Virus record (IMG/VR): IMGVR_UViG_3300020045_003743
Coordinates: 1-41,397 of that record
Reading direction: 5' to 3' (one strand)
DNA: 41,397 nt
DNA from: a virus
Taxonomy: Duplodnaviria; Caudoviricetes
Positions 32 to 41,397 of the stretch are shown in pieces. Made by a program: the position numbers and the translations under genes. Within the stretch, counting starts at the first letter, position 1. Each line of letters starts with the position of its first letter. The notes under the pieces are model-generated. The model did no database searches. It saw nothing but the letters and a program-made list of their open reading frames with translations, and was not told where the DNA came from.

Positions 32-86
32 GAAAAACTCGAATACAGCTGATTTAAGTAATGACCTGTATTTTGGCTTGGATTAG
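1..86 (+). CDS. 3' end of the nucleotidyltransferase-like CDS that starts at 40856 and wraps the origin
   Basis: In-frame continuation ...ESKAKLIEALKNSNTADLSNDLYFGLD* with stop TAG at 84-86. Confidence 0.85.
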   Translation, partial: ESKAKLIEALKNSNTADLSNDLYFGLD

Positions 87-107
87 TTCTTATGAATGAT
101 AATCGAG

Positions 108-121
108 CAATGCACCATAAC
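108..121 (+). repeat. Right inverted end of cassette 5 (CAATGCACCATAAC)
   Basis: Complementary to GTTATGGTGCGTTG at 40817-40830 with one G.T pair; no hairpin follows. Confidence 0.8.
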
Positions 122-152
122 TATTAGCTTGGACTTATAAATGTATTACAAA

Positions 153-26881: not shown

Positions 26882-28048
26882 TTACAAATCAGGACTTTTA
26901 TCCATTATTTCCTTTCTGTTTATTTCGTTTTGTTTAGTGACATAAATCAAAGTAGTTTCTTTTTTTGAATGTCCAAAAACTCCCTGTATAGCATCTAAAC
27001 TTATCCCGGCTTCATACTTTTTATTAGATCCAAATTTCTTCATTGAATACATTGTAATTTCTTTAAATCCAAGTCCTTTTTTTACGATAGTTTCCCATCT
27101 TCTTGTTGCTGTATCTCGGTTTATGTGTGTAGGTGCGGGGAGAAAGTCGGGCAAAAACTGATTTTTACCCCTGTTACCGATTGCAGGCTCTTTGAAACTC
27201 CCAAATAAATAATAATCTTTAGGCAGTTTGTCGAATTGCATATTAATTAAATGCTCTTTTAGATACTTGTTTATGGGTAATGTCCTGTATTTTTTTCTAC
27301 CCTTTGTATTTTTTGGCAATAACTGAATTATGTTATTATCCATATCAATCATATTTAATTGAATATCTAATATTTCAGTCGGTCTGATCCCTAAATCAAA
27401 AATCAATCTAATGTAATTGTAAAAATTAGGATGGTTTTCTATTAATTCCTTTTTAATAACTTCCATCTGTTTGTCACTTGCAGGAACGTGCGCAATACTT
27501 TCCTCAACACGTAAATTTTTAACTTTAAACGCTGGGTTATCTTCTATTATATCGAACTGGATTAACTCGCTTAAAATGGCTTTAAAATGATTCAAATGTT
27601 TATTGTGTGCCTTGTTGCTCCAGCTATTTAACTCTTTCGCTTTTTCCATTATCAACTTAATATGGATTCTTTTCGTGTCGACAATATTCAAGTGCGAAAG
27701 TCCGATATTTTTAATAGCGGTTTCTAAAAAGTTTAACGATCCGTTATAACCGGAATATGTTTTGTTAGATATGTTTGGTTTCTTCTTTTCTAAAGCAAAT
27801 TTTAAAGCATCTATTAAATTTAGATCACTTTGCTTTTTTATGATTTCGGGAATGTTTGGATTCCAGCCTGATTTCAACCTGTCGTGGTACACATCACATA
27901 AAATCAAAAATTGCCTTTCACGTTCTTTGAGGTCGTGTATTCTGTTAAGTTCGTTTTTGCGTTGGTATAGTTTGCCGTTGTATCTGAAAAACACAAACCA
28001 AGTACTAGAAGATTTTGAAAGTTTGGGAACTGTAAATTTAGCTTTCAT
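26882..28048 (-). CDS. int: Tyrosine integrase
   Basis: GIRPTEI, YSMKK (HxxR variant), FGHS...TLIY; N-terminal arm-binding and core-binding regions; adjacent attP. Confidence 0.92.
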   Translation of the reverse strand: MKAKFTVPKLSKSSSTWFVFFRYNGKLYQRKNELNRIHDLKERERQFLILCDVYHDRLKSGWNPNIPEIIKKQSDLNLIDALKFALEKKKPNISNKTYSGYNGSLNFLETAIKNIGLSHLNIVDTKRIHIKLIMEKAKELNSWSNKAHNKHLNHFKAILSELIQFDIIEDNPAFKVKNLRVEESIAHVPASDKQMEVIKKELIENHPNFYNYIRLIFDLGIRPTEILDIQLNMIDMDNNIIQLLPKNTKGRKKYRTLPINKYLKEHLINMQFDKLPKDYYLFGSFKEPAIGNRGKNQFLPDFLPAPTHINRDTATRRWETIVKKGLGFKEITMYSMKKFGSNKKYEAGISLDAIQGVFGHSKKETTLIYVTKQNEINRKEIMDKSPDL

Positions 28049-29105: not shown

Positions 29106-29318
29106 ATGAAAGTAAAACAGCAAATTTTTAACACTTTACGTAAAAAATACAGTTTACGAAAGATAATTTCTGACAGTTTAAATGTTAAAGAAATAAATGT
29201 TTACCTCTGGGCTTACAGAAAACAGCATAATAAAGTAGGTGATTCCTTAGTAACTGAAATTTTAAAACGTGAATTACAAATAACTGATTCCGAAATCTTT
29301 GAGCCTTTAAACTCTTAA
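29106..29318 (+). CDS. Cro-like protein
   Basis: 70-aa basic HTH-like ORF (ISDSLNVKEINVYLW), divergent from the repressor. Confidence 0.6.
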   Translation: MKVKQQIFNTLRKKYSLRKIISDSLNVKEINVYLWAYRKQHNKVGDSLVTEILKRELQITDSEIFEPLNS

Positions 29319-29442
29319 TTATGACCTATCAACAAAAAAGAGAATTAGACCGAACTTATAGAATGGGCGGTTACGTTTTAACAGTTTGCGGCTTTATGGC
29401 AATTGTGGTTGTAACAATATTAATATTTAAATAAAAATAAAA

Positions 29443-29933: not shown

Positions 29934-30191
29934 ATGACAAGATTAAAAACTTTACAAAATCGTTACGACAGATTACTTGAAGCGAATAATACACATCATT
30001 TCACGCAGTCTGGTAACGTTAGGATTGACAAATACTATGCTTGTTTACTTTATATCAAACGTCAAATTTCAAACGAGCAAATGAAAGTTATTACAGTTAA
30101 CAACAATCTTAAATCTAAAGTTCGTCAAGGGTTTTTAAATCCTCAAAACGGATTTACAATGTCAGATTTAAGGCTTTTAACACAGCCGTAA
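29934..30191 (+). CDS. Hypothetical early protein
   Basis: First ORF after the promoter. Confidence 0.6.
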   Translation: MTRLKTLQNRYDRLLEANNTHHFTQSGNVRIDKYYACLLYIKRQISNEQMKVITVNNNLKSKVRQGFLNPQNGFTMSDLRLLTQP

Positions 30192-37443: not shown

Positions 37444-37683
37444 ATGACACATAAATTAAAGATTAAACGAGAATACGCAATAGAATATTATGCAGGAAAT
37501 AAGCCTTGGGAATTACGAAAAAACGATAGGTATTTTAAAGTAGGTGATACGATAAATTTCACAATCATTGAAACGGGGTGTAAATACAGTAGGGATATAA
37601 TCTATATTTTTGAGGGTGGACAATACGGACTTGAAAAGGGATTTTGTATTTTAACTATGTCAGGATATAATTATTATTTATAG
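37444..37683 (+). CDS. ASCH/DUF3850-domain protein
   Basis: HKLKI...GNKPWELRKNDRYFKVGD. Confidence 0.8.
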   Translation: MTHKLKIKREYAIEYYAGNKPWELRKNDRYFKVGDTINFTIIETGCKYSRDIIYIFEGGQYGLEKGFCILTMSGYNYYL

Positions 37684-37739
37684 AAAACTTTAACATAAAA
37701 AGTTACGTTCATATATTATTTTTACTTAAATTTACAAGA

Positions 37740-37798
37740 AATCCGGCAAGATTGAATTTATCCCCCTTGTCACTTGCCGGTACTTGGGGGTTTTTTTT
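37740..37798 (+). ncRNA. Kissing-loop terminator leader C, upstream of the cassette array
   Basis: Loop CGGCAA is complementary to terminator loop TTGCCG. Confidence 0.6.
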
Positions 37799-37868
37799 AT
37801 TTCGGCTGCTGAAATATAGCTGTTGTTATATTCTCGGCTTTTTTTACTAACAAATAAAAATATATAAT

Positions 37869-38030
37869 ATGGAAGCACTATTAATTTTATCGATATTGGT
37901 AATTGGATTGTTAATTTATTTTGCAATAAATAACTGCAAAATAGAATTAAGATATAGAAATATACTACTAGAAGAACAAAATAAAATACTTAAAAACATA
38001 CAAAATGAAAACACTAAAAGAGCAAATTGA
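37869..38030 (+). CDS. Cassette 1: 53-aa membrane protein (not in ORF track)
   Basis: MEALLILSILVIGLLIYFAI hydrophobic helix. Confidence 0.55.
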   Translation: MEALLILSILVIGLLIYFAINNCKIELRYRNILLEEQNKILKNIQNENTKRAN

Positions 38031-38226
38031 GGAAGTAGATTTAATCCAAACAGGTTATGAAGATTTTTATATGAATTCTGATAAAATAGTTGAAGTGACA
38101 GAAAACTATTTAAATGAAAAAATAGATAAATTAATACAAAAAATAGAAGGAGAAACTTTAGCTCATTATGCTTATGAAGCAGTTATAGGTATGCTTGAAG
38201 ATTTAAAATATCAAGAACAAGAGTAG
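38005..38226 (+). CDS. Cassette 1: acidic hypothetical protein
   Basis: 73-aa ORF ending just before the cassette right end. Confidence 0.6.
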   Translation: MKTLKEQIEEVDLIQTGYEDFYMNSDKIVEVTENYLNEKIDKLIQKIEGETLAHYAYEAVIGMLEDLKYQEQE

Positions 38227-38254
38227 CTTTGGTTACAAAGTTGCTCAAGCTGGA

Positions 38255-38385
38255 ATATAACGTCCTGCGGCTTTGTGCAGGCGGGAAAATAAAACCCGAA
38301 TAATTAAATTAATCAATAATAATAAAAATATACCAAATGACTGAATTAAAAACTGATGCCCGCTTGCTAAAAACCGCTGTTATGC
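38255..38385 (+). repeat. attC-like site 1
   Basis: ATATAAC-gtcct-stem 38267-38285/38359-38377-t-GTTATGC. Confidence 0.8.
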
Positions 38386-38642
38386 CTCGTTTTTTTTGCA
38401 AAATATGTAATACGCACACAGGATGTAGTTATTATAATTTTGGTGTTTTGTGTGACGAAGAATTAAAATTTAAAAATAAAATTATGGAAACTTTTTACAG
38501 TAAGATTGATAGAAGATTGAAAGAGTTAAAACAAAAAAGAGAATTAGTAAAAAAATCTAATTTTTTAAACATTAACAAATCAGTTGAATTAAGAATATTA
38601 GACAGATGTATTGATGAATTAAACAATTTATTAGATAAATAA
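38337..38642 (+). CDS. Cassette 2 ORF starting inside attC-like site 1 (alternative start 38484)
   Basis: ATG 42 nt before GTT; CxxC...C...C segment. Confidence 0.55.
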   Translation: MTELKTDARLLKTAVMPRFFCKICNTHTGCSYYNFGVLCDEELKFKNKIMETFYSKIDRRLKELKQKRELVKKSNFLNINKSVELRILDRCIDELNNLLDK

Positions 38643-38645
38643 TTT

Positions 38646-39521
38646 ATGAAATTACAAGATAATAAAAATATATTTTGCTCCGTTTCGGCAGGTTATTCAA
38701 GCGTAATGATGGCAATTAAGATAAAAGAGTGGTATCCAGACCATAATATTATTTATGCAATGGCTAACGTATCAAAAGAAAGATCGGAAAGTTTAGATTT
38801 TATGAATAAATGTGATAAGTATTTCGGATTAAATATGACTTGGATAGAAGCTGTTTTTAATATGAAAAGCGGGGACGGTGTGGATTTTAAAATAGTTTAT
38901 TATGATGAATTAAAAAGAGATGGAGAAATATATGAGCAAGGAATAAAGAAACTAGGAATAGCATCAAAAATTAATCCTTGGTGCAATAGAGATATGAAAA
39001 TAGTACCATTGAAAAAATTCGCAGATAGCATTTTCGGATTAAATAATTATTCTATTGCGGTAGGACTTAGATCTGATGAGATGGATAGAGTAAAAGAGGC
39101 TTATCTAACTAATAATACTTTTTATCCTTTACTAGACAACGGAATCACAACTAAGGATAGAAATAAATTTTGGAAAGACAAACCAATACAAATAACAATT
39201 CCGGCTTATAAAGGTAATTGTGATATGTGCTTTAAGAAGTCAAACAGAAAGTTAATGACAATATTAAATGAAGAACCAAATATTATTGATTGGTGGGAAG
39301 AAATGACTATTAAGTATTCTAAAATTCCAATAGAAGGGAAAGACGCATATAATTATTATGCAGAAAATGGAGGAATGAATTTTTTCAGGAGCAATCTAAG
39401 TATTCCAGAATTAGTTAATATGGCAAGTGAGCCATTTAGAAAAGCAAATGACGAATACGTTTATGAAAATGATTTGTTTGATGTTGAGGAAGATTGCGGT
39501 TCTGGATGTGTAATTTTTTAG
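38646..39521 (+). CDS. Cassette 2: PAPS-reductase-like (PP-loop) protein
   Basis: SVSAGYSS, WCNRDMK, GLRSDE..R, GNCDMC and C-terminal CGSGC motifs. Confidence 0.8.
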   Translation: MKLQDNKNIFCSVSAGYSSVMMAIKIKEWYPDHNIIYAMANVSKERSESLDFMNKCDKYFGLNMTWIEAVFNMKSGDGVDFKIVYYDELKRDGEIYEQGIKKLGIASKINPWCNRDMKIVPLKKFADSIFGLNNYSIAVGLRSDEMDRVKEAYLTNNTFYPLLDNGITTKDRNKFWKDKPIQITIPAYKGNCDMCFKKSNRKLMTILNEEPNIIDWWEEMTIKYSKIPIEGKDAYNYYAENGGMNFFRSNLSIPELVNMASEPFRKANDEYVYENDLFDVEEDCGSGCVIF

Positions 39522-39543
39522 CACATAATTTCTGTAAAATGAG

Positions 39544-39674
39544 GCATAACGTTTGTCGCTTGTGGTAGTTGGGAAAAGGAAGCCCGAAACCTCGATTAAT
39601 CACTAATTTTTAAAAGTACAAAACAATGAATAAATTAAAGACTGAAACCCAATTACCACAAGCGATTGTTAGCC
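39544..39674 (+). repeat. attC-like site 2
   Basis: GCATAAC-gtttg-18-bp stem 39556-39573/39648-39665-tt-GTTAGCC. Confidence 0.85.
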
Positions 39675-40294
39675 GTCGTTCTTTTCGGATTGGAGAGCTT
39701 GTTAAATTTAATGTTATATCAGATGATTCAGATTATGCTTCTAATTGTTTTGGAGTAGAATCACAAAATGATTGGTTTGACATACAAGTATATCCCGAAG
39801 AAGTATTTGGAGAAATAGTTAAAAGAAATACTATTGAAATCATATATACCGATGGTAAACGTTCTGGAAAATTCTTTAAAATAAAAAATGGAATAATTGA
39901 AAACGAAGTAAATAAATTACTTCAAAAAAAATCAGAATACGATATATCTCTATCTCGAATATTTGATGGTAGTGATTTGAAAACGATTAAAGATTTTAAA
40001 AAAATAACAACAATTCCATTTATACAATTAACATCTTTAAGTAATAAAGGAAGTGTAGTAAATCCACCAAAAAAGAACGTATTAGTTCAAATAAGAAGAC
40101 CTTATGAATTAGGTTCTAAATTACTAGGATATTCAAAATACGAAGACGGAAAATGGAGTGATTTAGAAGACGTAGAGAACAACAGTGAACCAAAAATAAT
40201 TGACAATAATTGCTGGTGGTTTGCTGACTACAAATATGATACAAAAAGAATTTTCATAAACGGAAAAGTTTTCGTCGAAGATAGCGGTTTTTAG
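39626..40294 (+). CDS. Cassette 3 hypothetical protein; start codon lies inside attC-like site 2
   Basis: 222 aa with no internal Met; stop codon overlaps the cassette right end. Confidence 0.7.
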   Translation: MNKLKTETQLPQAIVSRRSFRIGELVKFNVISDDSDYASNCFGVESQNDWFDIQVYPEEVFGEIVKRNTIEIIYTDGKRSGKFFKIKNGIIENEVNKLLQKKSEYDISLSRIFDGSDLKTIKDFKKITTIPFIQLTSLSNKGSVVNPPKKNVLVQIRRPYELGSKLLGYSKYEDGKWSDLEDVENNSEPKIIDNNCWWFADYKYDTKRIFINGKVFVEDSGF

Positions 40295-40300
40295 AATGAC

Positions 40301-40432
40301 GGCTAACGTTTTGCTGGTAGGCGATGTGGTGGAGTGAAAAGCCAAAATACCGAGATTCAAGACAAATCTCGCAAAATTTACCAAACTTTAAATTAAGCCG
40401 AGTGCCACCATATTGCTTACCAGCTGTTATAT
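40301..40432 (+). repeat. attC-like site 3
   Basis: GGCTAAC-gtttt-20-bp stem 40313-40332/40405-40424-t-GTTATAT. Confidence 0.85.
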
Positions 40433-40478
40433 TCTCGGCTTTTTTTCTCATAATTATTAATTAAAAATACTAAATAAA

Positions 40479-40646
40479 ATGGAAAAAATACAATACGGAC
40501 AAGTAGTAACTGCTGATTTTTCAGAAAACACAATCACATTTGAAATGGATGAATATTTTACAATTTGTGCTGGAGAATTTGCGATTGTTACCGTTAAAAC
40601 TTTAGACCAAAAAATGAAATTAGAAGCTTTTTTAGAAACGTTATAA
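40479..40646 (+). CDS. Cassette 4: 55-aa hypothetical protein (not in ORF track)
   Basis: TAAATAAAATG start context; MEKIQYGQVV...FLETL*. Confidence 0.6.
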   Translation: MEKIQYGQVVTADFSENTITFEMDEYFTICAGEFAIVTVKTLDQKMKLEAFLETL

Positions 40647-40690
40647 AAACAGCGAGAGTAGCTTTCGCCAGAAAGTTGCTCGAAGCTGGA

Positions 40691-40823
40691 ATATAACGTC
40701 CTGCGGCTATGCGATGGTCGGGAAAAATAAATCCCGAACTTCAAATTTATCCTAAAATAACCAAGTACAAACTGATAATTAAATTAAAAAACTAACCCGA
40801 CTATTGCATAACCGCTGTTATGG
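40691..40823 (+). repeat. attC-like site 4
   Basis: ATATAAC-gtcct-20-bp stem 40703-40722/40796-40815-t-GTTATGG. Confidence 0.85.
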
Positions 40824-40855
40824 TGCGTTGTGGGTCGCTAAAACAAAAAGTTGTT

Positions 40856-41397
40856 ATGAATTTTATTGAACGCCCGAAAGAAACATTTAACAAAGTACGC
40901 TTTTTAGATTATTATATGGAATGCCACAAAGGTTTTATCGCTGGGGGTTGTTTCAAAAATATATTTAAAAATCAAAAAATAAAGGATTTGGATATTTTCT
41001 TTGAGAACGAAAAAGACTTTTTAGAAGCTGTTGAACATTTTAAAAGTAATGAAAATTACATTTTATCTTATGAAAACGACAATACAATATCGTACAAAAA
41101 TAAGAACACAAATATCAGAATTGAACTAATAAGAAATACTTACGGAACCGCTGAAGAAATTATTGCGAAGTTTGATTTTAGTATTACAAAATTTGCCTAC
41201 GCAAGAAAACAAGAACCCGAAGGAGTCATTTATTACAATTTACTGGTAGATACTTTCTTTGAAGATATGACAAATAACAAACTTGTTATTGATGGAGATT
41301 TACTTTATCCTATAAGCAGTTTTGAACGTTCATACAGATACCGAACTTATGGGTTTGGATTATGCAAAGAAAGTAAAGCAAAATTGATTGAAGCATT
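40856..41397 (+). CDS. Cassette 5: Pol-beta-superfamily nucleotidyltransferase-like protein (198 aa; wraps to 86)
   Basis: FIAGGCFKNIF...KDLDIFF (GG...DxD) and FDFSI motifs resembling CCA-adding/poly(A) polymerase head domains; missed by the ORF track because of the contig break. Confidence 0.78.
   Translation, partial: MNFIERPKETFNKVRFLDYYMECHKGFIAGGCFKNIFKNQKIKDLDIFFENEKDFLEAVEHFKSNENYILSYENDNTISYKNKNTNIRIELIRNTYGTAEEIIAKFDFSITKFAYARKQEPEGVIYYNLLVDTFFEDMTNNKLVIDGDLLYPISSFERSYRYRTYGFGLCKESKAKLIEA
41367..41397 (+). repeat. 31-bp direct terminal repeat (identical to 1-31)
   Basis: Exact match to the start of the window. Confidence 0.95.

Follow-up and report, generated by a model that had tools for sequence, protein, structure and literature searches.

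The window analysed in this study, a stretch of 41,397 nt, is the complete circular genome of a phage (Caudoviricetes; IMG/VR record IMGVR_UViG_3300020045_003743) and carries five gene cassettes separated by hairpins. Sequence comparison indicates that they probably form an integron-like array, composed of a fixed docking site (positions 119-150) and five hairpin-then-gene cassettes that would be excised and inserted at AA/C (between the second A and the C of an AAC core) by a Xer-like recombinase of the likely Flavobacterium host. That the array works like an integron but lies outside the integron family, as a real and distinct build, appears well supported by the comparison with related phages and Flavobacterium chromosomes. 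The original prediction, made from the sequence of the window, had outlined the cassettes and hairpins and proposed a mobile platform worked in trans. The outline stands but missed a broken fifth hairpin at the left end of the array and the docking site at its right end; the proposal is supported by the comparison and refined in that the hairpin appears to belong to the gene that follows it and the array to read from the docking site.

All five matched pairs of cassette ends were found where the original prediction had placed them, including the pair of cassette 5 across the origin (table 1), and the origin within this cassette is spanned by one contig from an unrelated sequencing run. A scan of the whole circle for the hairpin pattern (AAC, 5 nt and a stem arm on the left; the second stem arm, 1-2 nt and GTT on the right) identified exactly the four hairpins between the cassettes, all on the + strand, and 40 local shuffles gave 1 match in total. 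The folding z-scores of hairpins 1-4 on the + strand are -1.8, -3.4, -2.9, and -3.2, and the stems measure ~14-18 bp plus bulges instead of the 18-20 bp initially described. The first and last 15 nt of a cassette pair at 14, 14, and 13 positions in cassettes 2, 3, and 5 and at 11 ungapped positions in cassettes 1 and 4, which rise above 11/15 if one bulged base is allowed. The claim that each cassette start matches its own end holds for cassettes 2, 3, and 5 (10-11 of 12 positions with the own end, 3-7 with the ends of other cassettes); cassettes 1 and 4 share one common frame and therefore match each other's ends equally. The motif TAnnTTTG, initially reported as unseen inside the cassettes, is present at 38224 and 38435, although it occurs genome-wide at the chance rate (70 vs. 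72 expected). At the left end of the array, positions 37800-37827 align to the right arm of a short hairpin found ahead of the cassette 1 frame in six viral loci, and no partner arm was found upstream or anywhere in the genome. A broken hairpin at this end explains why five cassettes are accompanied by four hairpins; a test of the alternative, a long hairpin whose loop would contain genes, led to its rejection. The two ends of the array are unlike, with the broken hairpin on the left and the docking site on the right.

Table 1. Array elements and associated genes in the window (ORF, open reading frame)
Feature	Position	Strand	Remarks
Right arm of fifth, broken hairpin (short, ~69-nt class)	37800..37827	+	Left arm and loop lost
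Cassette 1 body	37825..38261	+	Frame common with cassette 4; two ORFs without clear family, 37869-38030 (53 aa) and 38005-38226 (73 aa)
Hairpin 1	38259..38381	+	Start codon of next gene (38337) in loop
Cassette 2 body	38379..39550	+	ORF 38337-38642 (101 aa) and PAPS-reductase-like gene 38646-39521
Hairpin 2	39548..39670	+	Start codon of next gene (39626) in loop
Cassette 3 body	39668..40307	+	ORF 39626-40294 (222 aa), no family
Hairpin 3	40305..40428	+	Whole-circle scan, folding
Cassette 4 body	40426..40697	+	Cassette 1 frame, different cargo; ORF 40479-40646 (55 aa)
Hairpin 4	40695..40819	+	Whole-circle scan, folding
Cassette 5 body, first part	40817..41397	+	Gene from 40856, nucleotidyltransferase-like (198 aa), crossing the origin to end at 86
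Cassette 5 body, end	32..121	+	Closes at AAC 119-121
Docking (attI-like) site	119..150	+	AAC, 5-nt spacer, GCT arm, short palindrome 142-150; non-hairpin
Small ribbon-helix-helix-like gene, 60 aa	153..335	+	phrog_25647; position holds short recombinase in some phages
Only tyrosine recombinase of the phage, 388 aa	26882..28048	-	Beside repressor-like genes; 11 kb from array

A viral set was assembled from six viral scans, the Polaribacter phage P12002L and the window, comprising 391 hairpins and, from 110 loci, 259 matched cassettes; identical sequences were merged and some loci overlap on one contig. Gene content at the array locus had been predicted to vary among related phages, and it does so in loci L001 and L002, where the upstream replication protein is 92% and 90% identical to that of the window and is followed at the same locus by entirely different cassettes of the same build, which end in a similar non-hairpin site. 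Overall, phage arrays often end downstream in a conserved non-hairpin site and upstream mostly in a hairpin-arm-like sequence. The docking site of the window folds poorly and is present ahead of 48 out of 53 homologues of the small 60-aa gene. The sequence of these docking loci is conserved to the right of the AAC and variable to its left, with 38 different left sequences, and a matched cassette closes at the docking AAC in 33 out of the 43 loci with enough room, compared with 8 out of 192 control AACs. Across these loci the docking site is shown to be constant and the adjoining cassette variable. A further docking-site locus was observed in L363.

The breakpoints, which had been expected at the cassette cores, fall at AAC in the related loci and in public contigs. 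Among 187 adjacent hairpin pairs from an earlier subset, the 7 nt that follow GTT match the end of the next cassette at a mean of 5.3 positions and their own hairpin at 3.0. One cassette body shared by two phages was found in seven pairs, where the left hairpin is kept in 6/7 and the right hairpin in 0/7; one of these pairs shares its right flank, which is the docking site in both phages. Chromosomal duplicate cassettes keep the left hairpin at 99-100% in 32/32 pairs and the right one at 57-97%, with the pairs mostly coming from one genome and being non-independent. Since pairs with a shared body keep the left hairpin, the unit consists of a hairpin and the following gene, cut at AA/C, and the alignments show the putative moving unit to start at the C of one AAC, to include the hairpin and the gene, and to stop at the next AA. 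Two genes of the window start inside the loop of their left hairpin, and only a hairpin-then-gene unit would keep these two intact. A reading frame starts inside the hairpin in 116 of the 259 cassettes. Hairpin 1 has a 91% identical copy with different flanks in L132, and a hairpin 94% identical to hairpin 3 lies between different cassettes in L004. Contigs of four public sequencing runs contain parts of the window in other company, in pieces that begin at 38258, 39546, and 40692, and docking-site pieces begin at 116-118, with the break placed at 117. In run X9, one contig carries cassette 3 and diverges after 40308, and a hairpin arm replaces the docking site after cassette 5, with the break at 121. 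The joints at 38258, 39546, 40692, and 40308 represent frames shared with other genomes and are no evidence of excision.

The paired cassette ends display a fixed feature: position 11 of the outer stem is a G.T pair in 251 out of 259 cassettes. Read on the coding strand, the outer stem contains 270 G.T and 3 A.C pairs, while positions 5-10 use all four pairs. Cassette-end matching allowed any two mismatches and the outer-stem G.T count is therefore not built into the detector. The G.T pair is present in every cassette of the window, and in cassettes 1 and 4 it follows a one-base bulge. A similar pattern lies in the inner arm, ten bases away from the core of that arm, indicating that the site has two similar arms; the inner-stem G.T count and the folding-energy bias (253/259) are partly built into the detector and provide no independent support. 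By computation, one strand would be the folded substrate, and the strand with conserved pairing is the coding strand in the phage.

Cassette polarity was called by the longest ORF in the phage cassettes and in a chromosomal set of 58 cassettes from six genomes. By convention, the genes of integron cassettes run away from attI and the hairpin follows the gene. This direction is reversed in 248 out of 259 phage cassettes, including all window cassettes, which code on the folding strand (9 code on the opposite strand and 2 on none), and is followed in 53 out of 58 chromosomal cassettes, which code opposite to the folding strand. The counts indicate that host arrays resemble ordinary integrons and that phage arrays are flipped. 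A 326-nt cassette in L399 (minus strand, position 1455) has phage polarity and a phage-type frame and is located in a Flavobacterium chromosomal array.

As originally predicted, no integron integrase was found: the complete window genome contains neither IntI nor a short array-type recombinase, and its sole tyrosine recombinase (26882-28048) scores 31.9 bits against an IntI cut-off of 265 and is likely the lysogeny integrase, with no part in the array. The docking site of L119, L132, L136, and L169 is followed after 43-52 nt by the start of a tyrosine recombinase gene, which encodes 266-276 aa (incomplete in L132). The best profile for six such short recombinases is XerA, whereas the IntI profile gives 116-169 bits in two split stretches, below the same cut-off; their best matches are NF040815 (155-196 bits, cut-off 220) and PDB 4a8e (E 8e-36). 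Compared with IntI4, ~47 residues are missing (~34 where IntI4 has ~81), and the IntI insertion is absent from the three chromosomal enzymes in the alignment too.

We infer a Flavobacterium-type host because the hairpin pattern matches Flavobacterium genomes and short matches exist to Cellulophaga and Olleya phages. Among 61 genomes from the genus of a Flavobacterium bin, 39 contain a close homologue of the short recombinase (E 1e-68 or better). The prediction that a recombinase accompanies host copies of the site was borne out in these chromosomes: genomes with the homologue have a median of 4 hairpin-pattern matches and those without it 1 (P = 6e-7, a value inflated by kin genomes). Furthermore, 17 out of 22 chromosomal recombinase genes have a docking-like site 92-174 nt beyond their stop codon, and this site leads into arrays of 125-nt hairpins of the same kind, with position 11 being G.T in 57/58. 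The array-linked chromosomal enzymes are 340-350 aa long, and Flavobacterium genomes contain separate, weaker XerC/D-like matches (E ~1e-41 to 1e-53), making the array enzyme an additional one. A recombinase search of the genome contigs returned mostly Xer proteins without hairpins among the matches listed. On these comparisons, the working enzyme is most likely the host Xer-like recombinase and neither IntI nor the phage lysogeny integrase. Among individual genomes, one strict pattern has no match in G001, a bin that contains two short phage-type recombinases (G001:C28 and G001:C8) besides the longer chromosomal one; L401 (G021:C1:195000-207000) is an array with a docking-like end in a genome without a close recombinase match; and one chromosome (L395 and L402, G030) has several repeats of short cassettes (313-407 nt) in which no clear ORF is apparent.

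By analogy with integrons, the coding strand would fold when single-stranded, the Xer-like enzyme would cut it at AA/C, new cassettes would enter at the docking site and replication would resolve the junction, with the recombinase supplied by the host. Early transcription would then read through the array toward the docking site, a hairpin loop could supply the start codon, and phage and host would share an enzyme while keeping largely separate, oppositely facing gene pools.

Several observations weigh against this reading. Its support consists of sequence comparison, and the Flavobacterium host likewise follows from sequence matches. The loci were found with patterns and proteins derived from the window, which biases the counts toward similar arrays; a terminase-based scan retrieved mostly distant phages and few arrays. 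The docking arm of the phage (GCT) is unlike the usual host docking arm, no full cassette body is common to 63 chromosomal and 259 phage cassettes, and no public run was found to hold this phage itself. Cargo homologues had been expected to have matched ends, and five of the six homologues of the cassette-2 gene lie outside matched cassettes: an 83% identical copy occupies a different frame in L306 and the other five are outside cassettes in five other phages. The failure of a P12002L site with IntI1 (discussed below) speaks against IntI, yet it shows no activity. Finally, simple cassette movement leaves the re-pairing of hairpins unexplained: of 210 pairs of near-identical hairpins, 186 have no flank in common, 20 agree in the downstream flank, 4 in both, and 0 in the upstream flank alone, which indicates that hairpins also acquire new bodies at GTT.

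The frame of cassettes 1 and 4, which have both ends in common and different cargo, is reused widely. Its start was found in 54 viral loci, where 38 distinct bodies had a closing end within range and 15 starts had none; the interiors of the 38 bodies and of the two window copies form 34 clusters. Two origins are conceivable: assembly of new cassettes from common parts or occasional cutting of the site at its other end. A broader proposal, which we put forward only tentatively, is that a second integron, built independently and driven by a Xer-like enzyme, operates in Bacteroidota and that their phages parasitise it with arrays of reversed polarity, where cutting at two ends would exchange hairpins, frames, and cargo separately. 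If so, empty or reusable frames would be loaded with ordinary phage genes and cassette genesis would be seen in the act, with one frame holding 34 interiors and one gene present in two frames and outside any.

The same mechanism might have built the window array in an ancestor or a former host, with the array now frozen and inherited without further shuffling. The phage lacks the short recombinase, 22 of the 61 Flavobacterium genomes have no close recombinase match and the leftmost hairpin is already broken, all of which would fit; we regard a frozen array as unlikely given that the four hairpins, every outer stem, and the docking site have remained intact and that copies of cassettes 3 and 5 more than 90% identical are found beside different neighbours in other contigs, which suggests recent movement.

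Somewhat further from the evidence, the hairpins could be regulatory repeats (terminators or leaders) between which genes are swapped by homologous recombination, as with the promoter early stem-loops (PeSLs) of T4-type phages. PeSLs also lie between interchangeable small genes in a variable phage region and are promoter-terminator repeats for which exchange by homologous recombination has been published (PMC4122927). Near-identical hairpins that recur between unrelated genes, and the many reading frames that start in a hairpin, agree with such a role. However, no long direct repeat covers all four hairpins of the window, the promoter motif is at chance level and the breaks fall at a 3-nt core. 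Regulatory repeats also leave the end-to-end pairing over up to 1.1 kb with its fixed G.T pair unexplained and offer no account of the non-hairpin docking site, the neighbouring site-specific recombinase, or the sharp breaks at AAC, which makes this explanation improbable.

A third possibility is an ordinary cluster of attC sites lacking an integrase (CALIN), derived from a host integron and worked by canonical IntI. The AAC/GTT cores and self-matched ends are those of integrons and phage CALINs have been published, one of them in a Polaribacter phage (PMC9892861). The size and IntI score of the array-linked enzyme, the failure of a published site of this build with IntI1 (PMC9892861), and the scarcity of integrons in Bacteroidetes according to IntegronFinder 2.0 (PMC9024848) render this very improbable. 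It is equally hard to credit the 388-aa integrase of the phage with double duty in shuffling the array: it is the sole tyrosine recombinase of the genome and has a close homologue in L001, but is ~25% identical to the array-linked enzymes, lies far from the array beside repressor-like genes, and has close homologues in only three of the fetched loci (whose flanks were limited).

The genome has a 31-nt terminal repeat (completeness class 'complete') and encodes terminase, portal, capsid, and tape-measure proteins, ERF, NinG, and replication genes, and the integrase beside repressor-like genes; the array is located between the replication genes and the small terminase gene. BLAST of the window against annotated phages left the array unmatched and Rfam gave no match for its elements. 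The PAPS-reductase-like protein of cassette 2 matches phrog_424 (E 3e-36) and weakly SspD (E 2e-12), and may take part in DNA modification or counter-defence. The cassette 3 protein has no family in four libraries and Atlas scores of 0.80 or less. The cassette 5 protein matches phrog_4400 (E 1e-52) and phrog_1614 (E 8e-10), and no solved structural relative was found for it. In L001 (11660-13930), two cassettes appear by eye to be DNA methyltransferase genes. The 60-aa protein next to the docking site has two predicted helices and weak matches to CopG/Arc-type folds, all with E > 1; as a guess, it might bind the palindrome 142-150. Just before the array, the region 37681-37798 contains a stretch common to the window and L001 (84% over 70 nt), which may be a promoter, and after it two overlapping stems and a T run, which could be a terminator or attenuator. 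A lone sequence resembling a left hairpin arm (AAC, 5 nt, GCGGCT) follows the cro-like gene at 29370-29420, with no partner arm seen, and may be a remnant or a regulatory element.

Among known systems, the definition of a CALIN (at least two attC-like sites with no integrase nearby) also describes the window. Qi et al. (2023) reported 17 phage CALINs, including that of P12002L (PMC9892861). The attC1 of P12002L (30009-30055 of NC_028924) is a hairpin of exactly the build described here, in a phage without an integrase, and attC2 is the non-hairpin array end read on the other strand. In the account of that study (PMC9892861), HattCI predicted one site of this build, the two sites are handled as ordinary attC of divergent direction, and attC1 was not integrated by IntI1; its passages on these sites name no dedicated recombinase, docking site, or Flavobacterium arrays. 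In print, only one phage site of this build was found, taken for an ordinary attC (PMC9892861), and no description of the system was found in the literature searched, which covered few subscription papers and no bioRxiv supplements. In our scan of the cultured phage P12002L (L225, NC_028924; 29150-40950, minus strand), at least 10 hairpins of this build were observed, several with a small ORF in the loop; the region also includes methyltransferase cargo and two copies of the end site, near 29200 and 37250. Integrons are reported to be scarce in Bacteroidetes (PMC9024848) and in phages (PMC9892861). The present build is nonetheless abundant in Flavobacterium chromosomes and in many phage contigs, and a whole gene-capture system may therefore be escaping standard detectors.

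The array shares with integrons the AAC/GTT cores, the self-matching cassette ends, a hairpin that travels with one gene unit, a strand that folds better than the other, a non-hairpin site at the head of the array and, in host chromosomes, a tyrosine recombinase adjoining that site. It differs from canonical attC geometry in a 5/1 bulge beside the core and a fixed G.T in each arm, and from integrons in that the phage hairpin precedes the gene and the genes run toward the docking site. Integrons recognise a folded strand (PMC8618304) and the IntI insertion is described as essential for their function (PMC8138268), whereas the enzyme linked to the present arrays lacks that insertion; if the reading holds, hairpin recombination would be possible without it, and a host enzyme would provide a site-specific route to the mosaicism of phage accessory genes. 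The reused frames make the question of cassette origin testable with short, defined substrates. The closest relatives of the short enzyme are XerA, XerC, and XerD, which give its best profile and structure-sequence matches; in contrast to XerC and XerD, the array enzyme is an extra gene in the 39 of 61 Flavobacterium genomes that carry it and is located beside cassette arrays.

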